From sequence record PP410321: 64,000 bases of DNA. One strand, written 5' to 3'. The notes under the pieces were generated by a model. That model made no database searches, was not told the DNA's origin, and was given only the letters and a program-made list of their open reading frames with translations. Positions 4,673 through 48,984 of this stretch are shown here, one piece after another. Positions within the stretch are counted from its first letter, which is position 1; each line of letters opens with the position of its first letter. This stretch comes from Escherichia phage vB_EcoM_CUA3. The position numbers and the translations under genes are program-made.

Positions 4673-5577
4673 TTAATTNNNNNNNNNNNNNNNNNNNNNN
4701 NNNNNNNNNNNNNNNNNNNNNNNNNNNNNNNNNNNNNNNNNNNNNNNNNNNNNNNNNNNNNNNNNNNNNNNNNNNNNNNNNNNNNNNNNNNNNNNNNNNN
4801 NNNNNNNNNNNNNNNNNNNNNNNNNNNNNNNNNNNNNNNNNNNNNNNNNNNNNNNNNNNNNNNNNNNNNNNNNNNNNNNNNNNNNNNNNNNNNNNNNNNN
4901 NNNNNNNNNNNNNNNNNNNNNNNNNNNNNNNNNNNNNNNNNNNNNNNNNNNNNNNNNNNNNNNNNNNNNNNNNNNNNNNNNNNNNNNNNNNNNTCTATTA
5001 TGAAAGGCTCTTTGAGTGAAGAACCTTTGGTAATAGAGGGTATTAATGATAGAGTAATAATATCATATAATTCTTAAAGCATATTAANNNNNNNNNNNNN
5101 NNNNNNNNNNNNNNNNNNNNNNNNNNNNNNNNNNNNNNNNNNNNNNNNNNNNNNNNNNNNNNNNNNNNNNNNNNNNNNNNNNNNNNNNNNNNNNNNNNNN
5201 NNNNNNNNNNNNNNNNNNNNNNNNNNNNNNNNNNNNNNNNNNNNNNNNNNNNNNNNNNNNNNNNNNNNNNNNNNNNNNNNNNNNNNNNNNNNNNNNNNNN
5301 NNNNNNNNNNNNNNNNNNNNNNNNNNNNNNNNNNNNNNNNNNNNNNNNNNNNNNNNNNNNNNNNNNNNNNNNNNNNNNNNNNNNNNNNNNNNNNNNNNNN
5401 NNNNNNNNNNNNNNNNNNNNNNNNNNNNNNNNNNNNNNNNNNNNNNNNNNNNNNNNNNNNNNNNNNNNNNNNNNNNNNNNNNNNNNNNNNNNNNNNNNNN
5501 NNNNNNNNNNNNNNNNNNNNNNNNNNNNNNNNNNNNNNNNNNNNNNNNNNNNNNNNNNCATATTAATATAGTCAAGT

Positions 5578-5837
5578 TTAATAGAAGCAATCTTTAAAGG
5601 ATTTTTAAAGATGTCGTATTCGACCAATCCATTTTCAGTTGCGGTATAAAAAGTAAAGTTGACAGAATTATAACGATGGCTGTTAACTTTGAGTTTAACA
5701 CCGCTTGAACTACGGCCAATATTAACCTGTTGAACATCAAGCACAGCATCTTTGCCGTAATTTCGAATCAACAACTCGGCTGCAACCTGATCGGATTTAT
5801 ATCCATTCTCTGGATTAGTAACCTTAACGTATAACAT
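5578..5837 (-). CDS. hypothetical protein, N-terminal part only (C-terminal part masked)
   Basis: Minus ORF starting ATG 5835-5837 (MLYVKVTNPENGYK...); reads into the N run 5088-5558. Confidence 0.4.
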
Positions 5838-6023
5838 TTAACCCTCGTCTACAATAGTGTGGGTATTGGCATTAACAATCTGCCACCAGTCAAAACGATT
5901 GGAACCATAACAAGGCTTATTCTCGTTTTCTTTAATGATATCGCGCAGTTCATCTTCAGNGAAGCCTTTNGCGATTAAGTCAGCATAACCGCCACGAGGG
6001 TAATAGTTATCACCCGCAAACAA
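5838..6023 (-). CDS. hypothetical protein, C-terminal fragment (N-terminal part masked)
   Basis: Open frame ending at stop 5838-5840 (...NRFDWWQIVNANTHTIVDEG); upstream portion lies in N run 6026-6238. Confidence 0.35.
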   Translation of the reverse strand: MFAGDNYYPRGGYADLIXKGFXEDELRDIIKENENKPCYGSNRFDWWQIVNANTHTIVDEG

Positions 6024-6811: not shown

Positions 6812-6836
6812 TGTTTTGATAGGTCTATAGTATCAT
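6812..6836 (-). promoter_or_regulatory. conserved promoter/leader motif, copy 3, upstream of the IP gene
   Basis: tgttttgataggtctatagtatcat, identical to copy 1. Confidence 0.4.
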
Positions 6837-7072
6837 NNNTATAGNCCTTGTAAANAACTTTTNNNNNNNNNNNNNNNNNNNNNNNNNNNNNNNNNNNNNN
6901 NNNNNNNNNNNNNNNNNNNNNNNNNNNNNNNNNNNNNNNNNNNNNNNNNNNNNNNNNNNNNNNNNNNNNNNNNNNNNNNNNNNNNNNNNNNNNNNNNNNN
7001 NNNNNNNNNNNNNNNNNNNNNNNNNNNNNNNNNNNNNNNNNNNNNNNNNNNNNNNNNNNNNNNNNNNNNNTT

Positions 7073-7780
<708 letters not shown>

Positions 7781-10054: not shown

Positions 10055-10491
10055 CCTAATTTTTTCAGTGAATGTTCGGTAATCAATCTAAAGGTGATAC
10101 CCATTTTATCTGCTGTAGCTTTAGCTGCTTTCCACTTATCAGTATTAACAGACCAAGTATAGTGTTCGTTGATATATCTCTTTTTAGCAGCCGTAGTCAT
10201 TTTAACAGGCACCGCAGGAGCATGGGTTTCTTTAAAAGGTTTGACTTCAAAAAAGAATTGTTGGCCTGTATCAAATTTAACCCAGAAGTCCATAAAATAT
10301 CGTCTTTTCTTTCCTTCGGCATTGCAAAAGTAAGGAATGACCACCTCTTCTGAATTCCACTGGACTACATTAGGATGGTTGTCAAGCCAACGCATAAACC
10401 ATGCTTCCCATGAGGAACGATATTGGATTTTCTTCCAGTCACCTTTATATTTTTGTAAGTTGGTAGGTTTAAATTTCCCTGAGTAAGCCAT
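10042..10491 (-). CDS. 4: gp4 head completion protein
   Basis: Synteny; start ATG 10489-10491 preceded by AAGGAGG and a minus-strand TATAAATA; about 149 aa as in T4. Confidence 0.8.
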
Positions 10492-10502
10492 AGTTGCCTC
10501 CT

Positions 10503-10510
10503 TATAAATA
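10503..10510 (+). promoter_or_regulatory. late promoter TATAAATA for gene 53
   Basis: Exact TATAAATA 28 nt upstream of the gp53 ATG. Confidence 0.7.
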
Positions 10511-10517
10511 TTAATAT

Positions 10518-10525
10518 TATTTATA
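10518..10525 (-). promoter_or_regulatory. late promoter TATAAATA (minus strand) for gene 4
   Basis: Reverse complement of plus tatttata; divergent from the gp53 promoter. Confidence 0.65.
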
Positions 10526-10537
10526 CTCGGAGGCCCT

Positions 10538-11140
10538 ATGCTCTTCTCATTTTTCGATCCCATCGATTACGAATCAAAAACAGTCAAGCCGGATTCGGGC
10601 TCATTAACTAATGCCGATGTATTGAGCGTACCGATGACTGATATATTTAGAAATTATAAAGAATATTTTGATAAAGTGGCTAAAAACTATACACTAAAGA
10701 CTTATTATATCAACGGAGCTCCACGTCCTGAAGAACTTGCCAATCTTCTTTATGGCAACGTCCAATTATATTGGGTTCTACTGATGTGTAATAATATATA
10801 CGACCCGTATTATGGATGGATTACCGGCCAAGAAGCGGCCTACCAAGCAGCTGTCCAAAGATATTCTACAGCCGGCGGAAACCAGGTCCTTTACCATGTA
10901 AACGAAAAAGGTGAGAAATTCTGGAATCTTGTCAACACCCCGGAAAATCCATATACTTGGTATGATAAAGGTGATACAGAAAAACGTTATCCTCAATACG
11001 AAGGCCCGTTGGCTGCAGTAGATATTTACGAGGATGCTATTCGCAAAAATGAATATAAGCGCGAAATAAAAATTATAGACCCTAATGATATTGAGTCTTT
11101 TATTTCTGCTCTTATTCGTGAAATGGAGAAAGCCCTCTAA
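10538..11140 (+). CDS. 53: gp53 baseplate wedge subunit
   Basis: Sequence and length (200 aa) match T4 gp53 as recalled; synteny upstream of gene 5. Confidence 0.9.
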   Translation: MLFSFFDPIDYESKTVKPDSGSLTNADVLSVPMTDIFRNYKEYFDKVAKNYTLKTYYINGAPRPEELANLLYGNVQLYWVLLMCNNIYDPYYGWITGQEAAYQAAVQRYSTAGGNQVLYHVNEKGEKFWNLVNTPENPYTWYDKGDTEKRYPQYEGPLAAVDIYEDAIRKNEYKREIKIIDPNDIESFISALIREMEKAL

Positions 11141-12882
11141 TGATTAACATGTCTGATAACGTAAGTTGGTTCGTCGGTGTAGTTGAAGACCGAATGGACC
11201 CGCTCCAACAGGGCCGAGTACGCGTACGCGTATGGGGTATGCACCCGTATGAAAAAGTACAGGGCCCTGTAAAAGGCCTTCGTACAGAAGATTTACCATG
11301 GATGTCGGTATTAATGCCCACATCTTCTGCCTCTGTTTCAGGTATACAAACCGCTATGACAGGTATGGTCCCAGGTACACAAGTTTACGGACACTTTCTT
11401 GATAAGTGGAAATTAAACGGGCTTGTCCTAGGTACATATGGTTCAGCTTCAAAACAAAAGGCAAATCCAAACGAAGGTTTTAGCGACCCCACAGGACAGT
11501 ATCCACTTTATTTAGGTAATGATGCCGCTGCACTAAACCGAGGTGGTGAAGTTGGATACGACGCCACTTCTAACGTAATACAAGATGCAAACACTGATGT
11601 GGGTATTAATCCCGATGGGTTGGATTTAAGCCAAGTTAAGCCTGATGATAATCCTAATTTCACAATAGAAAACATGCTTCATCGTGATGAGGGTCTTCGT
11701 CTTAAGGTATATTGGGACACTGAAGGATATCCTACCATAGGTATAGGTCACCTTATTACTCCACAACCTATTAGAGATATGAATCAAATAAACAAAATAT
11801 TATCTAATCAAATAGGTCGTGAAGTTAAAGGAAACCCGGGTGCAATATCAATGGACGAGGCTTCTAAATTATTCCAAGAAGACCTTAAAAAAGTCCAGAG
11901 CGATATAGGCCGTCACAGTGTCGTAGGTCCGGTTTACAATAAAGAAAACCGTTCGAGACAAATGGCCCTTGAAAACATGGCTTTCCAAATGGGGTTAGGC
12001 GGGCTTGCTAAATTNNNNNNNNNNNNNNNNNNNNNNNNNNNNNNNNNNNNNNNNNNNNNNNNNNNNNNNGCTCGTAATTCAGTATGGTTTAACCAAACTA
12101 AGGGACGTGCCTCAAGGGTATCAATGATTATTCTTACCGGTAATATGGAATCATACGGTATTATGGCCCCTAAAGAAAGAGAATTTAATGGCCGTTCTTA
12201 TAGGATGATTCAAACCTTTGCGGCCCCTACAAATTCAGACCCGGCCGACCCATGGACTCCGGAAGATACAAGGATTCTTTTTAAAGAGCCAGATTCCAGT
12301 TATAAAGGCGAATATCCATATGTCCAAACTATGCAAACTGAAGGCGGGCATATCCAAGAATTCGATAACACCCCAGGGCAAGAACGTTACCGATTAATTC
12401 ACCCTACAGGTAGTTATGAAGAAGTTGCTCCTGACGGACGTAAAACTTCTAAGACTGTAGCCGATGGATATTATATGACCCAAGGCGATTCCAATACTTA
12501 TGTTGGTGGTAATAATAAAGTCAATATAGGTGGTGATGAAACCTATTATAATATGGCAAACGTTCGACGTCAAACTGACGGTTCTGAAAGCATTCATATT
12601 CGTGGTAATGAAACCAAAACGGTAGAAGGTGACGGAACCCTTATTGTTAAAGGAAATGTTACGGTTATTGTTGAAGGTAATGCCGATATAACTGTTAAAG
12701 GTGATGCAAAAACCTTAGTCGAAGGCAACCATGATTATACAGTAAATGGAAATGTTAAGTGGTCGGTAAATGGAAACGTTGATATGACTGTTGCCGGTAA
12801 TTGGTCTGAAACTATGTCAACAATGAGTTCAATTGCATCTGGACAATATACTATTGATGGTTCGAGGATTGACATTGGCTAA
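11140..12882 (+). CDS. 5: gp5 baseplate hub subunit and tail lysozyme
   Basis: 580 aa; N-terminal OB-fold region, lysozyme-like middle and C-terminal beta-helix repeats (VKGNVTVIVEGNADITVKGDAKTLVEGNHDYTVNGNVKWSVNGNVDMTV); short N run inside. Confidence 0.95.
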   Translation: MINMSDNVSWFVGVVEDRMDPLQQGRVRVRVWGMHPYEKVQGPVKGLRTEDLPWMSVLMPTSSASVSGIQTAMTGMVPGTQVYGHFLDKWKLNGLVLGTYGSASKQKANPNEGFSDPTGQYPLYLGNDAAALNRGGEVGYDATSNVIQDANTDVGINPDGLDLSQVKPDDNPNFTIENMLHRDEGLRLKVYWDTEGYPTIGIGHLITPQPIRDMNQINKILSNQIGREVKGNPGAISMDEASKLFQEDLKKVQSDIGRHSVVGPVYNKENRSRQMALENMAFQMGLGGLAKXXXXXXXXXXXXXXXXXXXARNSVWFNQTKGRASRVSMIILTGNMESYGIMAPKEREFNGRSYRMIQTFAAPTNSDPADPWTPEDTRILFKEPDSSYKGEYPYVQTMQTEGGHIQEFDNTPGQERYRLIHPTGSYEEVAPDGRKTSKTVADGYYMTQGDSNTYVGGNNKVNIGGDETYYNMANVRRQTDGSESIHIRGNETKTVEGDGTLIVKGNVTVIVEGNADITVKGDAKTLVEGNHDYTVNGNVKWSVNGNVDMTVAGNWSETMSTMSSIASGQYTIDGSRIDIG

Positions 12883-35523: not shown

Positions 35524-37101
35524 ATGGCAAACTTTAATACAATATTAAGTTTTCTTAAGCCATGGGCTAATGAAGACGAAAAAGAATTTAAACAACAATT
35601 AAATAACAATTTAGAGTCTGTCACTGCACCTAAGCTTGATGATGGCGCTCGCGAAATTGAAACCCAAGAGCAAAATATTCCTTATAACGCTCTTATGCAA
35701 CAAATGTTTGGTAGTAATGAGCCTGAAGTAAAAAACACCAGGGAACTCATTGATACCTACCGTAATTTGATGAACAACTATGAAGTCGATAACGCAGTTC
35801 AAGAAATTGTGTCTGACGCTATTGTCTATGAGGATGATAAAGAAGTAGTTGCATTGAATTTAGACGGGACAGAATTCAGTCAATCAATTAAAGATAAAAT
35901 TTTGGCTGAATTTAGTGAAGTTTTAAACCTTTTAAATTTCCAACGTAAAGGCACTGACCATTTCCAACGTTGGTATGTAGACTCGAGAATATTCTTTCAT
36001 AAAATTATAAACCCTAAAAAAATGAAAGATGGCGTACAAGAGCTTCGACGCTTAGACCCGCGCCAAGTCCAATATATTCGTGAAATCGTTACACGTATGG
36101 AAGACGGCGTTAAAATTGTAGACGGGTATCGCGAGTTTTTCGTTTACGACACAGGCCATGAAAGTTATTGCGCTGATGGACGCATTTATTCAGCCGGGAC
36201 TAAAGTTAAAATTCCTCGTGCTGCGGTAGTTTATGCACATTCCGGATTATTAGATTGTTGTGGTAAAAACATCATTGGCTATTTGCAACGTGCTATTAAG
36301 CCTGCAAACCAGCTTAAATTGATGGAAGACGCAATGGTCATCTACCGTATTACACGTGCTCCCGACCGTCGTGTGTTTTATATCGATACAGGTAATATGC
36401 CTTCTCGTAAGGCGGCAGCACAAATGCAACATATCATGAACACGATGAAAAACCGTGTGGTGTATGATGCTTCGACCGGTAAAATTAAAAACCAGCAACA
36501 TAATATGTCAATGACTGAAGACTATTGGTTGCAACGTCGAGACGGTAAAGCAGTTACAGAAGTTGATACAATGCCAGGTGCTACTGGTATGAGTGATATG
36601 GATGACGTTCTTTATTTCCGCACAGCACTTTACCGTGCGCTGCGTATTCCAGAGTCGCGTATCCCTAGTGAATCTAATTCCGGTGTTATGTTTGATGCTG
36701 GTACGGCTATAACTCGTGATGAGTTGAAATTTGCTAAATGGATTCGTCAGCTCCAAAATAAATTCGAAGAAATTTTCTTAGACCCATTAAAAACAAACCT
36801 CATTCTTAAAAAGATTATTACAGAAGATGAGTGGGAAAGAGAAATAAATAATATTAAAGTTACGTTCAACCGTGATAGCTACTTCAGTGAAATGAAAGAT
36901 GCGGAAATCATGGAACGCAGAATCAATATGCTAACGATGGCTGAACCATTTATTGGTAAGTATATTTCACATCAAACGGCTATGAAAGATTTCCTTCAGA
37001 TGACTGACGAAGAAATTAATCAAGAAGCTAAGCAAATTGAAGAAGAGTCTAAAGAGGCTCGTTTCCAAAACCCAGATGAAGAAGAAGAAGAGGATTTCTA
37101 A
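35524..37101 (+). CDS. 20: gp20 portal vertex protein
   Basis: 525 aa (T4 gp20 524); synteny. Confidence 0.95.
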
Positions 37102-37376: not shown

Positions 37377-37804
37377 TGTTCCTTATCCCTGATGATTACG
37401 AATTAACTCTAGAAAGTGTAGAGGCCAAAATTCCAGAAGCACAGGGACGTTTTGCTACTCTTTCTGAAGCCCTCGAGAAAAGCGATATAAATAATCTTGT
37501 AGAGAACATGATTGCTGATGGCGATATTGATACAGCTATTGCCATCGCCTCTTTGAATGAAAATATGGCTCTTAACGAATTTATTGTTAAGCACGTTTCT
37601 TCTAAAGGTGAGCTTACTCGTACTAAAGATATTAAAACCCGTCAACGCAACGCTTATCAAACGACCGGGTTGTCTAAAGCAAAACGCCGTCAGATTGCTC
37701 GCAAAGCATCTAAAACCAAACGTGCTAATCCGTCTACTCAAGTACGTGCTGAACGTAAGCGTAAGAAAGCTCGTTCTAAACGTAAAGCCTTTGGACTTAA
37801 CTAA
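37376..37804 (+). CDS. 68: gp68 prohead core protein
   Basis: 142 aa (T4 gp68 141); synteny. Confidence 0.85.
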
Positions 37805-38439
37805 TGAAACCTGAATTGCTCATCGAACATTGGGGACAACCAGGTGAAATTATCGATGGGGTTCCAATGTTGGAATCTCATGATGGAAAAGATTCTGGAC
37901 TTGCCCCAGGCCTTTATATAGAAGGCATATTCATGCAAGCCGAAGTGGTTAACCGTAATAAACGCCTTTATCCAAAACCTATTTTGGAAAAAGCTGTTGC
38001 CGATTATATGGCAGAACAGGTTGCTACTAAACAAGCTTTAGGAGAATTAAATCATCCGCCTCGTGCTAACGTTGACCCTATGCAAGCCGCTATTATTATT
38101 GAAGATATGTGGTGGAAAGGTAATGACGTTTATGGACGTGCTCGTATTATTGAAGGCGACCATGGTCCTGGTGATAAACTAGCTGCTAATATTAGAGCCG
38201 GTTGGGTACCTGGTGTTAGTTCTCGTGGTCTAGGTTCTTTAACTGAAACCAACAAAGGATATAAGCGTGTAAACGAAGGTTATAAATTAACCGTCGGTGT
38301 TGATGCAGTATGGGGACCATCTGCTCCTGATGCTTATGTAACTCCTAAACAAATTACAGAATCACAAACGGTAGATACCGATACCAGTGCCGATGACGCC
38401 TTTATGGCTCTCGCAGAGGCCATGAAAAAAGCGTTATAA
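37804..38439 (+). CDS. 21: gp21 prohead core scaffold protein and protease
   Basis: 211 aa; near-identical to T4 gp21 as recalled (…LIEHWGQPGEIIDGVPMLESHDGKD…). Confidence 0.97.
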   Translation: MKPELLIEHWGQPGEIIDGVPMLESHDGKDSGLAPGLYIEGIFMQAEVVNRNKRLYPKPILEKAVADYMAEQVATKQALGELNHPPRANVDPMQAAIIIEDMWWKGNDVYGRARIIEGDHGPGDKLAANIRAGWVPGVSSRGLGSLTETNKGYKRVNEGYKLTVGVDAVWGPSAPDAYVTPKQITESQTVDTDTSADDAFMALAEAMKKAL

Positions 38440-38469: not shown

Positions 38470-39285
38470 ATGCTTAAAGAACAACTGATTGCTGAAGCAC
38501 AGAATATTGATGCTTCCGTTGCTCTTGACAGTATTTTCGAATCAGTTAATATTTCTCCGGAAGCAAAAGAAACTTTCGGCACTGTATTCGAAGCTACCGT
38601 CAAGCAACACGCCGTTAAACTGGCTGAATCTCACATCGCTAAAATCGCTGAAAAAGCGGAAGAAGAAGTTGAGAAAAATAAAGAAGAAGCTGAAGAAAAA
38701 GCCGATAAGAAAATCCAAGAAGCTGCCGGTCGTTTCCTTGACCACGTCGCTAAAGAATGGATGGCTGAAAACCAGCTGGCTGTTGATAAAGGTATTAAAG
38801 CCGAACTGTTCGAATCCATGTTGATGGGTATGAAAGAACTGTTTGTTGAACACAACGTGGTTGTTCCAGAAGAAGCAGTAGACGTTGTCGCTGAAATGGA
38901 AGAAGAACTTCAAGAGCAGAAAGATGAAACCGCTCGTCTGTTCGAAGAAGTTGGTAAGCGCGATGCGTATATTAATTACGTACAGCGTGAAGTTGCGTTG
39001 ACTGAAGCAACTAAAGACCTGACTGAATCTCAGAAAGAAAAAGTTAGTTCTCTGGTAGAAGGCATGGATTATTCCGATGCATTTGGTAAAAAAATTGGCG
39101 CTATCGTTGAAATGGTTAAAGGCCAGACCGACGTTGAAAAACCAATCACCGAAGCCGCTATAAATAAAACTGAAGACGATGCTGCAGCACTGAATTATAT
39201 TTCGGAAGCAGTTGAAGAAAAAGGCGCTAAGCCTACCCTGTCCTTCGCGGACCTGTCTGCAATCGCAGCATCACGAATTTCTTAA
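38470..39285 (+). CDS. 22: gp22 prohead core scaffold protein
   Basis: 271 aa acidic helical protein (T4 gp22 269); synteny. Confidence 0.93.
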   Translation: MLKEQLIAEAQNIDASVALDSIFESVNISPEAKETFGTVFEATVKQHAVKLAESHIAKIAEKAEEEVEKNKEEAEEKADKKIQEAAGRFLDHVAKEWMAENQLAVDKGIKAELFESMLMGMKELFVEHNVVVPEEAVDVVAEMEEELQEQKDETARLFEEVGKRDAYINYVQREVALTEATKDLTESQKEKVSSLVEGMDYSDAFGKKIGAIVEMVKGQTDVEKPITEAAINKTEDDAAALNYISEAVEEKGAKPTLSFADLSAIAASRIS

Positions 39286-39306: not shown

Positions 39307-40866
39307 ATGAAAAAGAATGCATTAGTTCAAAAATGGTCCGCTCTGCTGGAAAACGAAGCTCTTCCTGAAATCGTTGGTGCTTCTAAACAAGCTATCATCG
39401 CTAAAATTTTCGAAAACCAGGAACAAGACATCCTGACTGCTCCGGAATATCGTGACGAAAAAATCTCCGAAGCATTTGGTTCTTTCTTGACCGAAGCTGA
39501 AATCGGCGGTGACCACGGTTATGATGCTACCAATATCGCAGCTGGCCAGACCTCTGGTGCTGTAACTCAGATTGGGCCGGCAGTAATGGGTATGGTTCGT
39601 CGTGCTATTCCTCATCTGATTGCTTTTGATATTTGTGGTGTTCAGCCTCTGAATAACCCTACCGGCCAGGTATTTGCACTGCGTGCAGTATATGGTAAAG
39701 ACCCTATCGCTGCTGGCGCTAAAGAAGCTTTCCACCCGATGTATGCTCCAAATGCTATGTTCTCTGGTCAGGGTGCTGCTCAGACTTTTGAAGCACTGGC
39801 TGCAAGTAAAGTTCTGGAAGTTGGTAAAATTTATTCTCACTTCTTCGAAGCTACCGGTTCTGCACACTTCCAGGCTGTTGAAGCTGTAACCGTTGATGCT
39901 GGCGCTACTGATGCCGCTAAACTGGATGCTGCTGTAACCGCTCTGTTGGAAGCTGGTCAGTTGGCTGAAATCGCTGAAGGCATGGCTACTTCTATCGCTG
40001 AACTTCAGGAAGGCTTTAATGGTTCTCAGGATAACCCGTGGAACGAAATGGGCTTCCGTATCGATAAACAAGTTATCGAAGCTAAATCCCGTCAGCTGAA
40101 AGCAAGCTACTCCATCGAACTGGCACAGGACCTTCGTGCAGTACACGGTATGGATGCAGATGCTGAACTGTCCGGTATCCTTGCTACCGAAATTATGCTC
40201 GAAATCAACCGTGAAGTTATCGATTGGATTAACTACTCTGCACAGGTTGGTAAATCTGGTATGACCAACACCGTTGGCGCTAAAGCTGGTGTGTTTGACT
40301 TCCAGGACCCGATTGATATCCGTGGTGCTCGTTGGGCCGGTGAAAGCTTTAAAGCTCTCCTGTTCCAGATTGATAAAGAAGCAGCCGAAATCGCTCGTCA
40401 GACCGGTCGTGGTGCTGGTAACTTCATCATCGCTTCCCGTAACGTAGTTAACGTACTGGCTGCAGTTGATACTTCTGTAAGTTATGCAGCTCAGGGTCTT
40501 GGTCAAGGTTTCAACGTTGACACCACTAAAGCAGTATTTGCCGGTGTTCTTGGTGGTAAATATCGCGTTTACATTGACCAGTATGCACGTTCCGATTACT
40601 TCACTATCGGTTATAAAGGCGCTAACGAAATGGACGCAGGTATCTACTACGCTCCGTACGTTGCACTGACCCCGCTGCGTGGTTCCGATCCGAAGAACTT
40701 CCAACCGGTAATGGGCTTCAAAACTCGTTACGGTATCGGTATCAACCCGTTTGCTGACCCAGCTGCTCAGGCACCTACCAAACGTATTCAGAATGGTATG
40801 CCGGACATCGTTAACAGCCTTGGTCTGAATGGTTACTTCCGTCGTGTTTATGTTAAAGGTATCTAA
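39307..40866 (+). CDS. 23: gp23 major capsid protein
   Basis: 519 aa; near-identical to T4 gp23 over most of its length as recalled. Confidence 0.98.
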   Translation: MKKNALVQKWSALLENEALPEIVGASKQAIIAKIFENQEQDILTAPEYRDEKISEAFGSFLTEAEIGGDHGYDATNIAAGQTSGAVTQIGPAVMGMVRRAIPHLIAFDICGVQPLNNPTGQVFALRAVYGKDPIAAGAKEAFHPMYAPNAMFSGQGAAQTFEALAASKVLEVGKIYSHFFEATGSAHFQAVEAVTVDAGATDAAKLDAAVTALLEAGQLAEIAEGMATSIAELQEGFNGSQDNPWNEMGFRIDKQVIEAKSRQLKASYSIELAQDLRAVHGMDADAELSGILATEIMLEINREVIDWINYSAQVGKSGMTNTVGAKAGVFDFQDPIDIRGARWAGESFKALLFQIDKEAAEIARQTGRGAGNFIIASRNVVNVLAAVDTSVSYAAQGLGQGFNVDTTKAVFAGVLGGKYRVYIDQYARSDYFTIGYKGANEMDAGIYYAPYVALTPLRGSDPKNFQPVMGFKTRYGIGINPFADPAAQAPTKRIQNGMPDIVNSLGLNGYFRRVYVKGI

Positions 40867-40882
40867 GACCTAACCTTATTAT

Positions 40883-40910
40883 GGGAGACTTCGGTCTCCC
40901 ATTCTTGTTT
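40883..40910 (+). terminator. intrinsic terminator after gene 23
   Basis: gggagac-ttcg-gtctccc hairpin followed by attcttgttt. Confidence 0.65.
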
Positions 40911-41247
40911 CTGTACNNNNNNNNNNNNNNNNNNNNNNNNNNNNNNNNNNNNNNNNNNNNNNNNNNNNNNNNNNNNNNNNNNNNNNNNNNNNNNNNNNNN
41001 NNNNNNNNNNNNNNNNNNNNNNNNNNNNNNNNNNNNNNNNNNNNNNNNNNNNNNNNNNNNNNNNNNNNNNNNNNNNNNNNNNNNNNNNNNNNNNNNNNNN
41101 NNNNNNNNNNNNNNNNNNNNNNNNNNNNNNNNNNNNNNNNNNNNNNNNNNNNNNNNNNNNNNNNNNNNNNNNNNNNNNNNNNNNNNNNNNNNNNNNNNNN
41201 NNNNNNNNNNNNNNNNNNNNNNNNNNNNNNNNNNNNNNNNNNACCTT

Positions 41248-41255
41248 TATAAATA
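41248..41255 (+). promoter_or_regulatory. late promoter TATAAATA for gene 24
   Basis: Exact TATAAATA 28 nt upstream of the gp24 ATG. Confidence 0.7.
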
Positions 41256-41283
41256 AACATATACCCTCAATAAGGAAAGCGCA

Positions 41284-42567
41284 ATGGCAAAGATTAACGA
41301 ATTACTGCGCGAGTCAACAACTACTACCAGCAACTCATTGGGTCGCCCTAATCTTGTTGCTTTGACCCGTGCTACCACTAAACTAATTTATCGCGATATC
41401 ATCGCTGAACAACGTACAAACCAGCCTATCGCTGCATTGTATGGTGTCAAATATCTTACTCCTGATAATGAATTTAGCTTCCAAACCGGCGCCGTTTATG
41501 GCGGTGAAGTTGGTGCTAAAGACCGCGAAACCATTCCAGAATTAACAGATAAGTCCCAGGCGATTGCCAAGGGTGACTACTTTAAGTATCAGAATGTGGT
41601 TTATAAGGCTCTTGAATCAAGCCCTCTCGCATCTACTAGCGCTACAGGATTGGCTGATGCTCTTCAAGAAGGTTTGGTGTCATTAACATGTCGTCTGGTT
41701 CCGGACGCTGCTCATACCACTAAATTCGAAGAGAGTGATGTAGAAATCTCTGATGCCGTATTCCAGGTTAATAAATGGAATGCCCCTGTTAAGACTCGTA
41801 AATTGAAGACTGCTTTGACAGTAGAATTGGCCCAGGATATGGAATCAAATGGCTTCGACGCCCCTGCATTCTTAGAAGACCTCCTGGCCACAGTAATGGC
41901 AGATGAAATTAATAAAGACGTTCTTCAATCCTTGATTACGGTATCCAAACGTTATAAAGTAACTGGTGTATCCGATAACGGCATTATAGATTTGACTTAT
42001 GCCAGTGCCCCAGAATCTGCACGTAAACTTTATGAAATTGTTTGTGAGATGAATTCTGAAATCCAGAAAACTACTTCTTATTCTGGCACGTTTGTTGTGG
42101 CTTCAAGTCGTGTAGCTGCAATGCTTGCAGGTTCTGGCTGGTTAAAACATAGACCTGAAGATAATAATTGGCTCCCAGAAACTGCCTATGGTTATTTGTT
42201 GAATGGATTACCTCTGTTCTGTGATGTTAACAGCCCATTGGATTATGTTATCGTCGGTGTTAAAGAGAACTATGGTGGTAATGAAGTTGTCGGTTCTATT
42301 TTCTATGCCCCGTATACAGAAGGCCTAGATTTAGATGACCAAGAACACGTTGGTGCTTATAAGGTTATTGTCGACCCGGATTCATTACAGCCTTCTATTT
42401 CTCTGATGGTTCGTTATGCACTTTCGGCTAACCCATACACCGTAGCTAAAGACGATAAAGAAGCTCGTGTTATCGATGCAACCAATATGGATTTAATGGC
42501 TGGTCAGAGTAATATGTCTTATCTGCTTGGTGTTAAACTTCCAGCAATTATTTACGAGGCTGATTAA
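41284..42567 (+). CDS. 24: gp24 capsid vertex protein
   Basis: 427 aa; strong match to T4 gp24 (MAKINELLRESTTT…). Confidence 0.95.
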   Translation: MAKINELLRESTTTTSNSLGRPNLVALTRATTKLIYRDIIAEQRTNQPIAALYGVKYLTPDNEFSFQTGAVYGGEVGAKDRETIPELTDKSQAIAKGDYFKYQNVVYKALESSPLASTSATGLADALQEGLVSLTCRLVPDAAHTTKFEESDVEISDAVFQVNKWNAPVKTRKLKTALTVELAQDMESNGFDAPAFLEDLLATVMADEINKDVLQSLITVSKRYKVTGVSDNGIIDLTYASAPESARKLYEIVCEMNSEIQKTTSYSGTFVVASSRVAAMLAGSGWLKHRPEDNNWLPETAYGYLLNGLPLFCDVNSPLDYVIVGVKENYGGNEVVGSIFYAPYTEGLDLDDQEHVGAYKVIVDPDSLQPSISLMVRYALSANPYTVAKDDKEARVIDATNMDLMAGQSNMSYLLGVKLPAIIYEAD

Positions 42568-43841
42568 TGTCTAAGATTATAGACCTAATTAAAGAATCCA
42601 CACTGACGGCTGCCAACTCGGTTGGCCGTCCTGCTCTTCTTTCATACACCCAAGCAACTAATAAAAGAATCTTTAAAGCCTTAGTTGCCGAACAAAAAAC
42701 AAGCCAACCTGTTGCCGCTCTGTACGGGGTTCGTGTACTTAATCCTGACGACAAAATGACTTATATTGGTGGCGCTACATTTGCAGGCCAGATTGGTATG
42801 TCGGAACGTGAAAATATTCCTGAATTTACTGATTCGTCTACAGCTTATGCAGCAGGTGATATGTTCCAGTTTGAAAGTGTAGTGTTTAAAGTTCTGGAAG
42901 CATCTCCTTTCGCCGGAACCACAGAAACCGACCTCGGTGAAGTTATTTCTGAAGCAGTGGCCGCTGGACATATTCGTATGGTATCAGATGCTGCTATTAC
43001 TTCTAAATTCGAACAAGGCCATCCTGAAATTGCTGAAGCAGGCTTCCGTATTGATAAATGGCAATCTGAAGTTAAATCACGTAAATTGAAAACTTCGTTG
43101 ACAGTTGAATTGGCCCAAGACCTAGAATCAAACGGGTTTAATGCTCCTAATTTCGTTGAAAATCTGCTAGGAATTCAAATGGCAGAAGAAATTAATAAGG
43201 ACGTATTACAGTCATTAATTACGGTTAGTTCTCGTTTTAAAGTCCAAGGTGTTTCTGAAAAGGGTGTATTAGACCTTACCAACCCACGTTACGATAATGC
43301 CCAGGACCGTGCTCGTACACTATATTATTACATGTGTGAGATGAACTCTGCCGTCCAACGTCAAACTTCTTTCGCTGGGACTTATGCAGTAGCTAGTTCT
43401 CGTTGTGCTGCTATTCTCGCCGCTTCCGGTTGGGTTGAGAAAAAGGAAGACCAAGACGAACTGGCTTATGGTGTATTAAAGAACGGCCTGCCACTTTATG
43501 CTGATATGAATAGTCCATGTGATTATGTTATTGTTGGTGTGAATGCTCAGATGGGTGAAGGACAGACGGTCGCATCTTTATATTATGCGCCTTATACGGA
43601 AGGTTTGAATGTGGTTGATGAAGAAGGTGATACTTCAGTAGGTGAATTTAAGGTTATTGTTGACCCTGAAAGCTTACAACCTACAGTAGCATTGCTTGCT
43701 CGTTATGCATTGACTGCAAACCCTTATACCGTCGCTAAGGACGATAAAGAAGCCCGCATTATTGATGGCTCTGATATGGACAAAATGGCTAACCAAAGCC
43801 AATTGAGTTCTTATCTTGGTGTTAAACTTCCACCTTTAGAN
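42567..43841 (+). CDS. second gp24-like capsid vertex protein (divergent tandem paralog); 3' end uncertain
   Basis: About 425 aa, alignable along its whole length with the upstream gp24 (roughly half of residues identical by eye); true stop lies in or next to the N-containing stretch 43841-43850. Confidence 0.8.
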
Positions 43842-43853
43842 ANAAANNNAAAA

Positions 43854-43880
43854 GGGACCTCACGGTCCCTTTATTGTTTA
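43854..43880. terminator. terminator hairpin between convergent gp24 paralog and rnlB
   Basis: gggacc-tcac-ggtccc hairpin followed by tttattgttta. Confidence 0.55.
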
Positions 43881-44885
43881 TTTGGATACTAATTCAATCC
43901 ATACAGCTCGTAGCGTATCTTTAACACACTCAATGAGCTGCTTTTTAACTTCAACAGGATTTTCGGCATCGGTTAATTCTAATTCTTCACGGGCCGCTTC
44001 TTCCAAAATATCTTGGACCGTCAGTCCCATTACCTTTCCAAAATCTTTAGGTGATACTTCACCAATCTTACTGATAACATTGTTAATACGGTTAACAGTC
44101 ACATAATCAGTGAATTGCCACATCAAGTCCATATCGTCTTGGGACAATACCACTGCAACTTTAATAGGCTTGTCAGACTTTTTCTTCTCGCTGAATTTAG
44201 AGTTCTTACATTTAATCGCTACACGATTTCCATTAGGAAGCCAGATTGGAACATCAGGTTTCAGTACAAAGCCTTCAGCCGTAAATACTTTACCTTCAAC
44301 CTTAGGAATAAAATCAGTCGAGTTAGCAATGGTTAAACCTGCATTATCCACTGCAAAATTATAATCTGGGATAACAGAATCAAAATCATTTGGAAGTTTA
44401 ATAAGGTCTTCAAAGCTACCTGTGGCTAAGCATGGAGCAACCTTAAACTTATGGATAATACAGAAAGCTTCCATAAGGGTATCAGTTAGAACAGATTCGG
44501 TGCCATCTTCTTTAGTAACACGGATATCAAATACATAAAAGTCTTTATCGCCGTAATCCACATTCTTCTGGATACCTGTACCAGCGAACTCACCATAAAT
44601 TTGATATGACTGATAATTAATAGATTCGATTAGATGTTGAACAGATTTAATAGAATCAGCATAGTTCTTAAGTACGATTTCATAGCCGTAGAAATCTTCA
44701 GCAGGGAGAATTGGTCCGGTGCGCTTGGCGCATGTGACTGCGTCACGTTCTATGATTAAACTAAAGTTGGTTCCATGAATCTTCTCACGTGCTACCCATT
44801 CACCGCCAGTCAAACCATTAATACGGAGTTTTTCAATAAACTTATTGTTGTAGTGGTTTTCCAGACTGCTATATTTCTTGAACAT
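43878..44885 (-). CDS. rnlB: RNA ligase 2 (Rnl2)
   Basis: About 335 aa; EKIHGTNFS lysine-containing ligase motif near the N-terminus; length and position match T4 rnlB; ATG at 44883-44885 abuts an N run. Confidence 0.85.
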
Positions 44886-47613: not shown

Positions 47614-48984
47614 ATGAATAATTCTACCGTTACGAGATTCTTGTACATCAACCTCTGGATAATCGGCGACCATTTTTTGAAGAGTATAGCGATGGAGATA
47701 ATATTCACTATCAGGGTCATCAGTTTTCCAGTCTTTACCTTCAAGTGTCATTTTCTGGATTTCATCCATAACCCACCAACCAGCCCAAATATAAGCTGAA
47801 TTACGAACAGGAAGTGGATGTACATAAGGTAGTTCACCGTCAGGAACAGGAGCCACTTTAGCAGTAATTGTTACATTACCTGTTTTTTTGACCGTCACTG
47901 GGTTATAATCGGTTGCGGAAACCGCAACAGAAACTTCAATAACCTGCGAACCTTCAGCACTTGTATCGATTGCCAAAGTATCCGTGGTGCCTGCAACAGG
48001 TGAACCATCTTTCTTCCAAGAATATGCAAAAGTAGCACCAGCAGGGGCACCGGCTACGGTAGCTTTAAAAGAAGCTGGAATTCCTTCAGAGACATTAATA
48101 GACGGTGGCGTTAAGTTAACAGAAACACCCGTCATAGTCTTTTTAGTAATTGTTACACTTCCTGTTTTGGCAACGGTTAAATCTTTATAATCCGCACCTG
48201 TTAGGACTACCGAAACTTCAATAGAGTAAGAACCTATTGTAGATGTATCGACAGCAAGAATATTGCTGCTTTCGCCTGGAATAATAGAACCATTTTTCTT
48301 CCAAGAATAAGTTGCATTTACACCGGAAGGAGCGCCGATTACATCCGCTTTAAACTGTGCAGATGAGTCTTTCTCTGTACTAATTGAGGCCGGCGTTAAA
48401 GTAACAGAAACACCTGACAAAGTTTTCTTAACAAAAGTTACAGCAGCACCTTTAGTAGCGGTAGCCGAATTATATTCAGGGGCAGTAACGGTAACTTCAC
48501 AGTTCAAAGTGTAATTTGCTTCTGCTGCTTCAGTTATGGTAATAGTTTTACCTGTTTGACCTGATATTACGCTAGTGTTACGTTTCCAAACATAAGCGAT
48601 TGTTGCACCGGAAGGAGCACCTGTTACGTTAGCAGTAACAACCTGAGATTGGCCAATTTCTTTAGAAACGGAAGTAGGGTCTAAGGCCAAAGAAATGGTC
48701 NNNATGGTCTTATTAACTACGGTGACTTCAAAAGTATCTTCAGCTACCTCAGGTTCGCCTTCAGCTGGAGTAGAAGTTGCTACTACCTTTAAAACTTTCT
48801 TACCAGCCGGAGCCGCACCGGTATATTTCAAAACATTGGTTGCCTCTGGATTAGAAGCACCGCCAACGGTCCATACATATGTAATGGTTCCTTCTACAGC
48901 TGCACCTGTTGCGGTAGCAGTGTAGTTGGCACTTTCGCCTATTTTTATAGACGCAGCACCGGCTATACTTACAGTAAAAGCCAT
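47614..48984 (-). CDS. hoc: Hoc outer capsid decoration protein with four Ig-like repeats (C-terminal few residues masked)
   Basis: Four consecutive ~90-aa repeats each ending ...T(V/I)(T/V)xKKT, then …AKVAPVPDGELPYVHPLP…YLHRYTLQKM… matching the T4 Hoc capsid-binding domain as recalled. Confidence 0.85.

Follow-up and report, generated by a model that had tools for sequence, protein, structure and literature searches.

Bacteriophage T4 serves as the reference for how large prolate capsids assemble, and in the textbook account its head has one vertex protein, gp24. A pair of such genes is annotated in several relatives. In GenBank the two are named 24a and 24b, each with the product 'gp24 head vertex protein', in the Dhakavirus phages JS10, JS98 and IME08; they appear as 24(1) and 24(2) in VR7 and as 'capsid vertex protein I/II' in VR5, both of Gaprivervirus. 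Chibani-Chennoufi et al., in the Journal of Bacteriology of 2004, are said to have described the structural gene maps of JS98 and T4 as colinear except for ... 'gene 24 duplication in JS98'. Since the pair is annotated in GenBank for such close relatives, its existence is already known. Here we analyse the same pair in a stretch of 64,000 nucleotides (nt) from Escherichia phage vB_EcoM_CUA3 (sequence record PP410321), referred to as the window, in which gene 24a (copy 1) is directly followed by gene 24b (copy 2).

The duplication itself is not new; what the second penton does is a testable question. The reading that we favour, at a probability of roughly 0.6, is that the locus is a late operon encoding two genuine gp24-type proteins, that 24b belongs to an old gp24 lineage, and that the two products would form separate homopentamers and thus two kinds of corner on one head.

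The window belongs to a Dhakavirus. A megablast search with positions 41284-43900 returned 89 phage records that each covered at least 80% of the query, the best being the Escherichia phages UP19 and JS10 at 95.7% nucleotide identity; JS10 is classified as a Dhakavirus.

Two intact gp24-type genes

The two genes are placed as follows (aa, amino acids; ORF, open reading frame).

41284-42567, plus strand: gene 24a, orthologue of T4 gp24, capsid vertex protein, 427 aa (from the ORF and homology)
42567-43850, plus strand: gene 24b, second gp24-type vertex protein, 427 aa inferred (from the ORF and alignment to JS10; the last four codons are partly masked)

Judged by its alignments, 24a is the orthologue of T4 gp24. 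It scores 329.6 bits against the Pfam family PF07068 (cut-off 24.4), its residues 1-424 align to residues 1-425 of the T4 gp24 structure 1yue with an expectation value (E) of 4.7e-201, and it is 97.7% identical to 24a of JS10 and 71% identical to T4-type gp24. Its N-terminus, MAKINELLRE/S, carries the LxE motif (LRE/S) that is recognised by the gp21 protease.

Gene 24b gave comparable results: 325.7 bits against PF07068 (same cut-off), alignment of residues 1-422 to 1yue residues 1-421 (E 8e-151), and identities of 99.5% to 24b of JS10 and 57% to T4-type gp24. The N-terminus reads MSKIIDLIKE/S and keeps the cleavage motif in the form IxE/S, with E10 and S11 invariant across 52 homologues. Both proteins are colinear with gp24 over their full length of about 427 aa and lack the 65-residue propeptide of gp23; gp23 itself matched 24a and 24b only at E ~1e-11 and over part of the chain. 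PHROG 138 is the match for the gp24-type pair, and Pfam and PHROGs return the capsid family only. An AlphaFold2 model of 24b, of moderate quality (predicted local distance difference test score 66, predicted template modelling score 0.60), had as its best match chain 5vf3_a, T4 gp24 in the capsid, with template modelling (TM) scores of 0.79/0.80 and E 1e-45. Within the limits of its quality, the model of 24b has the gp24 fold.

Aligned to each other by BLASTP, 24a and 24b are identical at 240 of 426 positions (56%), with 77% positives, 10 gap positions and E 6e-180. The first-pass annotation, made from the letters of the window alone, had described a second full-length ORF directly after a gp24 orthologue and put their identity at roughly half. 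The plus-strand ORFs at 41284-42567 and from 42567 onwards confirm the arrangement, the 56% holds end to end and lies far beyond chance, and the closer resemblance of copy 1 to T4-type gp24 (71% against 57% for copy 2) agrees with calling it the orthologue. Both motifs quoted there as common to the copies are present, although copy 1 reads KTRKLKT and not KSRKLKT. The end of copy 2, given as about 43841, had to be moved. The window there reads CCACCTTTAGANANAAANNNAAAAGGG, which aligns gap-free to CCTCCATTGGATAAAAACTAAAAAGGG of JS10, and the partly masked 3' end of the gene, GANANAAANNNAAAAGGG, likewise pairs gap-free with GATAAAAACTAAAAAGGG of JS10. From this alignment we infer a stop at 43848-43850 and a product of 427 aa ending in PPLDKN. 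The end at 43892 in the ORF list, which would give copy 2 a length of 441 aa, is an artefact of N bases read as X.

Because its last codons are masked and the stop is not directly readable, 24b might be taken for a decaying pseudogene. The unmasked part of the gene contains no frameshift and no internal stop, the 3' end matches the intact gene of JS10, and 24b is intact in all the relatives examined (JS10, Bp7, JS98, VR7, STML-198 and F48). Selection points the same way. In Dhakavirus and Gaprivervirus comparisons by the Nei-Gojobori method, the ratio of nonsynonymous to synonymous divergence (dN/dS) was 0.044-0.078 for 24a and 0.018-0.065 for 24b, the ranges being quoted where dS was not clearly saturated; values for 24a rose to 0.17 against the distant Marfavirus F48, but synonymous sites are saturated there. 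In the 19 genomes that have the pair, 24b varies slightly less than 24a (mean p-distance 0.229 against 0.271). Both genes are under strong purifying selection. From the low dN/dS and the conservation over 19 genomes it follows that 24b is neither a pseudogene nor a relaxed spare. The pseudogene explanation is refuted, by an intact frame and a dN/dS of 0.02-0.07 for 24b, and its probability is close to nil; the possibility of a disrupted second ORF, named in the first-pass annotation as what would overturn its claim, goes with it (frame intact, dN/dS 0.02-0.08).

A late operon of two genes

The signals around the pair are consistent with expression as a single late unit.

40881-40902, plus strand: terminator-like hairpin after gene 23, the upstream limit of the 24a-24b unit; 9-bp stem (5 G-C), 4-nt loop, then TCTTGTTTCT
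41248-41255, plus strand: T4-type late promoter box TATAAATA, an exact match, 29 nt 5' of the 24a start
41272-41276, plus strand: Shine-Dalgarno-like AAGGA, 7 nt 5' of the 24a ATG, read from the sequence
42556-42559, plus strand: Shine-Dalgarno-like GAGG within the 3' end of 24a, 7 nt 5' of the 24b ATG, read from the sequence
42565-42569, plus strand: TAATG, in which the 24a stop overlaps the 24b start, read from the sequence
43851-43872, plus strand: terminator-like hairpin directly 3' of 24b, common to the convergent minus-strand gene rnlB; 9-bp stem, 4-nt loop, then ATTGTTTATT

The box TATAAATA, which is the T4 late promoter consensus, occurs 17 times as an exact match in the window (between 4233 and 53331) against 6.3 expected from shuffles, none of 100 of which reached 17, and most of the boxes sit just 5' of plus-strand structural genes for head and tail. 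No such box was found inside 24a or between 24a and 24b, and a hairpin search detected no terminator-like hairpin between the two genes. The hairpin that follows 24b is kept in JS10, Bp7 and JS98. These signals indicate that 24a and 24b are one late operon, made up of late promoter, 24a, 24b and terminator. Translation of 24b is probably coupled to that of 24a, as suggested by the GAGG and by the overlap of stop and start in TAATG.

Origin of gene 24b

Adjacent genes of the same orientation and the same length, with overlapping stop and start, invite the explanation that 24b arose as a recent tandem duplicate of 24a in situ and then diverged rapidly. We examined this with gp24 sequences from 17 annotated phages, 120 database homologues of copy 2 and five metagenomic loci, in neighbour-joining trees built from simply corrected distances and rooted on gp23 or on the gp24 of Krischvirus, Slopekvirus and Biquartavirus. 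The 24b-like proteins formed one clade with 100% bootstrap. The position-1 copies grouped with the single gp24 of T4, RB69, Karamvirus, Winklervirus-like phages and Kanagawavirus in a clade with 99.5% bootstrap that leaves out 24b. The pattern expected of recent in-paralogues, copies that are each other's closest relatives, was thus not found.

Individual sites agreed with the trees. Among 267 columns with a clear consensus, 24a is like T4-type gp24 and unlike 24b in 56, 24b is like T4-type gp24 and unlike 24a in 10, and 24a is like 24b and unlike T4-type gp24 in seven. Those seven are what a recent duplication could point to. When the columns were polarised with outgroups, none of the seven proved to be a shared derived state of 24a and 24b, against nine such states for 24a with T4-type gp24. 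Gene 24b also keeps outgroup states at many positions, including VSSRFKV, SRCAA and a short loop at T4 residues 286-300. A fast-evolving copy can drift to the base of a distance tree; 24b is not faster than 24a among the same genomes. Together with the distribution of the pair described below, these results leave a recent duplication very improbable. The label of tandem duplication given in the first-pass annotation therefore fits the arrangement of the genes and fails as their history. The trees and polarised sites indicate instead that 24b is no recent copy of 24a: it represents a gp24 lineage of its own, old and inherited alongside a T4-type gene 24. Its split would be about as deep as those of the gp24 of Acinetobacter phages, Jiaodavirus and Tegunavirus.

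No compositional signature of a recent horizontal acquisition of 24b was found in GC content, GC content at third codon positions or codon usage when it was compared with 24a (GC 0.420 against 0.421; codon usage r = 0.88). Jiaodavirus gp24, about 62% identical to both copies, was considered as a donor or chimera and rejected. Its similarities to 24b are also present in Acinetobacter-phage and deeper gp24, which makes them ancestral states, and its grouping with 24b had 17% bootstrap. Concerted evolution, or gene conversion, between the copies was likewise rejected, the distance from 24a to 24b being 0.446 within genomes and 0.448 across genomes.

In JS98 the trees of the two genes differ, 24a grouping with Dhakavirus (99%) and 24b with Gaprivervirus VR7 (99%). 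Synonymous divergence between the 24b genes of JS98 and VR7 is saturated (dS 1.66), so that any exchange within the JS98 cassette would be old, or else the grouping would reflect convergence at the protein level.

Distribution and co-inheritance of the pair

A tblastn search with copy 2 matched 1,578 places in 1,452 phage records, and a sensitive blastn search 1,151 places in 1,029 records. From this surplus of places over records, about 120 of some 1,450 T4-like phage records carry two copies. They form a patchy set that includes Dhakavirus, Gaprivervirus, Gelderlandvirus (STML-198) and Marfavirus (F48) as well as Enterobacter phage IME523, Erwinia phage FBB1 and uncultured relatives. Every 24b-like gene whose context was read, down to 66% identity, lies directly 3' of a T4-type gene 24; the nearest single-copy relative is Jiaodavirus gp24, which at 62% identity stands without a partner. 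Over the 19 genomes the distance matrices of 24a and 24b are closely correlated (Mantel r = 0.87, p <= 2e-4).

The position-1 partners of 24b occupy at least four places in the T4-type clade: the Dhakavirus/Marfavirus group, the FBB1 group, locus L022 beside Karamvirus and T4, and metagenomic locus L023 beside Kanagawavirus. The pair is thus found in lineages whose 24a genes have single-copy phages between them, a further point against recent duplication, and in the gp23 tree too, phages with two copies and with one are interleaved. These patterns would fit a pair ancestral to much of the T4-type clade and lost repeatedly, including on the line to T4; they would equally fit a cassette that moved between phages by recombination.

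A remnant of a lost 24b was sought in single-copy phages. The candidate, a 262-aa ORF 3' of gp24 in Klebsiella phage PMBT63, was rejected, as it has no gp24 similarity and no PHROG match. Plus-strand ORFs of 239-269 aa lie directly 3' of the last gp24 gene in Jiaodavirus-like loci, at 3785-4573 in L008 (PMBT63), 5325-6134 in L021 and 5827-6546 in L022; none of them had a Pfam match, a PHROG match or similarity to gp24.

Where 24b differs and what it may do

Fixed differences were defined as sites at least 90% conserved within each clade and different between clades, in a comparison of 42 24a-type with 28 24b-type sequences. Thirty-six sites qualified. The segment of residues 11-59 (T4 numbering), 11% of the protein, holds ten of them (binomial p = 0.006). 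Eleven sites are altered in 24b only and conserved in all other gp24, and six of them fall in the same segment (A26S, T32N, L34R, Y36F, K56R and Y57V; p = 6e-4). Other fixed differences are found in linker 1 (S65T, T68G) and linker 2 (V153P) of the I-domain. Over the whole protein, 43% of positions differ between 24b and T4 gp24, and 24b has three-residue insertions near T4 residues 237 and 352 and a loop four residues shorter at 293-296.

In T4, residues 26-29 of gp24* pair with the I-domain linker of the adjacent gp24* subunit in the same pentamer, and residues 11-20 reach the outer surface of the neighbouring gp23 hexamer (PMC9546572). The changes specific to 24b thus fall on both partners of a contact within the pentamer, as well as in the arm extending to the hexamer, and for that reason we favour separate homopentamers. 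In the mechanism that we propose, both proteins would be late products that the prohead protease cuts after Glu10 and that enter the head as pentamers; each paralogue would form its own homopentamers, docking slightly differently; and the 11 non-portal corners of the prolate head would be divided between two kinds of penton.

By symmetry, the non-portal corners of a prolate head fall into three classes: a single corner at the apex and two sets of five, each set arranged as a ring. These classes would offer a natural, if for now speculative, way to split the corners between 24a and 24b. The more specific proposal that the two proteins form their own pentamers at geometrically different corners, for example 24a or 24b at the apical corner and the other at the ten 'shoulder' corners, is doubtful by comparison, and we put it forward tentatively.

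The copies might instead be interchangeable or mixed, co-assembling stochastically or occupying any corner, with the extra gene providing dosage, robustness, or antigenic or physico-chemical variety. Two genes that are co-transcribed and probably translationally coupled would yield both proteins at the same time and in the same place. Bypass-24 mutations at gp23 N381, A387 and K420 control pentamer formation; the sites aligned to these residues are R, A and G (T4 gp24 R277, A283 and G309) and are the same in 24a and 24b, and in the spine-helix and P-domain regions the copies agree at 67-69% of residues. Free mixing or redundancy leaves unexplained the purifying selection on both copies at saturated synonymous divergence, the 11 changes, radical to conservative, that are fixed in 24b only, and the lack of homogenisation within genomes (0.446 against 0.448). 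We consider it a minority possibility.

Alternatively, 24b could have left the vertex role to become an assembly factor of the prohead only, to take up a special position such as that beside the portal, or to act as a decoy against a host defence that senses capsids, and would then be absent from the mature shell or rare in it. The changes unique to 24b concentrate in the N-terminal region, and the N-terminal regions of T4 capsid proteins face the scaffolding core before expansion (PMC9546572). A single gp24 is also enough for T4. Against such a role, 24b keeps the gp24 architecture, the cleavage motif and the residues of the pentamer interface, its model superposes on capsid-bound gp24, and Pfam and PHROGs give the capsid family alone, with no sign of a new activity. 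A departure from the vertex is accordingly unlikely.

Several points weigh against two homopentameric pentons of old descent. The argument for homopentamers and two kinds of corner comes down to the location of the fixed differences, and the contact concerned is partly a backbone beta-pairing, which tolerates substitutions. The N-terminal arm is poorly predicted in the AlphaFold2 model of 24b. Geometry does not demand a second penton, since a single gp24 suffices for the same prolate head in T4, RB69 and Jiaodavirus. A search of the PDB turned up only T4 gp24 and no capsid with two gp24 proteins, and a full-text literature search found neither proteomic data on a phage with two gp24 proteins nor any paper dealing with what the second gp24 does, whether it is present in virions or what its structure is. 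As for its age, no grouping of 24b with a sister group exceeded 32% bootstrap, and its stem is long (0.22) in what are distance trees, where long-branch attraction could exaggerate depth.

Genomic context of the pair

The surrounding head genes, taken from the ORF list except for the masked stretch, are placed as follows.

35524-37101, plus strand: gp20
between gp20 and gp21, plus strand: gp67 and gp68
37804-38439, plus strand: gp21, prohead protease
38470-39285, plus strand: gp22
39307-40866, plus strand: gp23
40917-41242: masked stretch (N) between gene 23 and 24a

The plus-strand order 20-67-68-21-22-23-24a-24b, established from the ORF list by comparison of the window with annotated relatives, is the T4 head-gene order. 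The two gp24-type genes adjoin each other, with gene 23 on one side and rnlB on the other, in the window and alike in JS10, JS98, IME08, VR7 and VR5. The gap between gene 23 and 24a holds a small minus-strand hypothetical ORF in JS10, JS98 and Bp7 and a segD homing endonuclease gene in T4-type phages. On the other side, a DprA-like DNA-processing gene lies between 24b and rnlB in L005 (STML-198, Gelderlandvirus; 5302-5865), in L006 (F48, Marfavirus; 5288-5464, shortened) and in L023 (2612-3148); it is absent from the window and from T4.

Masking also breaks the window at 45.6-47.6 kb and in other low-GC blocks. Dips in GC to 0.07-0.2 are artefacts of this masking, and ORFs of 685-1148 aa at about 45.4-49 kb arise from reading through N bases. 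A Hoc-type head decoration gene lies at about 47620-48984 on the minus strand, its 3' end entering masked sequence. In its product Ig-like segments recur (...YVWTVGG..., ...YVWKRNT..., ...YSWKKNG...), and the capsid-binding C-terminal part contains ESRNG, the conserved Glu-Ser-Arg-Asn-Gly motif of Hoc (PMC10385173).

Extra plus-strand genes occur near the pair in L001 (JS10; 10368-12247), L018 (4890-6427) and L004 (VR7; 6815-7602). One encodes a collagen-like 'tail fiber-like' protein (PHROG 5073, E 1.4e-43), and the gene after it a short protein whose capsid-binding C-terminus is Hoc-like (PHROG 1149, E 6e-37). A link between the gp24 pair and these collagen-like and Hoc-like genes was considered and rejected: they are found in JS10 and L018 and are absent from JS98 and Bp7. 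The matching part of the window is masked.

Discussion

A second vertex protein, strongly conserved, is kept by about one in twelve of the T4-like phages sequenced, and many of the phages with two gp24 proteins are candidates for phage therapy (JS98, JS10 and S16-like phages). Were the two pentons to occupy different corners, they would be the first position-specific penton proteins in a tailed phage, a case of a lattice paralogue that encodes position within the capsid. T4, with its one gene, would then secondarily have lost one of two pentons present in its ancestor, and the division would be relevant to the engineering of T4-type heads for display or delivery. Should the copies simply mix, the second gene would be a minor variation.

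The closest counterparts of the locus are the pairs of JS98, JS10 and IME08 in Dhakavirus and of VR7 and VR5 in Gaprivervirus, which comprise the same two genes in the same order. Nothing essential differs between the window and the pairs of JS10, JS98, IME08, VR7 and VR5; it represents a slightly different isolate. T4 gp24 itself (PDB 1yue, 5vf3, 7vrt, 7vs5 and 8gmo) has its length, propeptide motif, genomic position and late-promoter control in common with both proteins of the window. T4, however, has one gene 24 whereas the window has two, with clade-specific changes in the N-terminal arm of 24b.

The paralogy of gp23 and gp24 offers a second comparison. There, likewise, a capsid paralogue stands beside its relative in the head operon, PF07068 being the family of gp23, 24a and 24b alike, and the paralogues are specialised by position in the lattice, gp23 forming hexamers and gp24 pentamers. 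That divergence is far greater: gp23 and gp24 are about 25-28% identical and differ by about 90 residues in length, whereas 24a and 24b are 56% identical and colinear. Beyond phages, CsoS4A and CsoS4B of the alpha-carboxysomes, which are bacterial microcompartments, are paralogues encoded side by side, both of them pentameric corner proteins of a polyhedral protein shell. Their fold and system are unrelated to those of 24a and 24b, and the analogy is one of function only.

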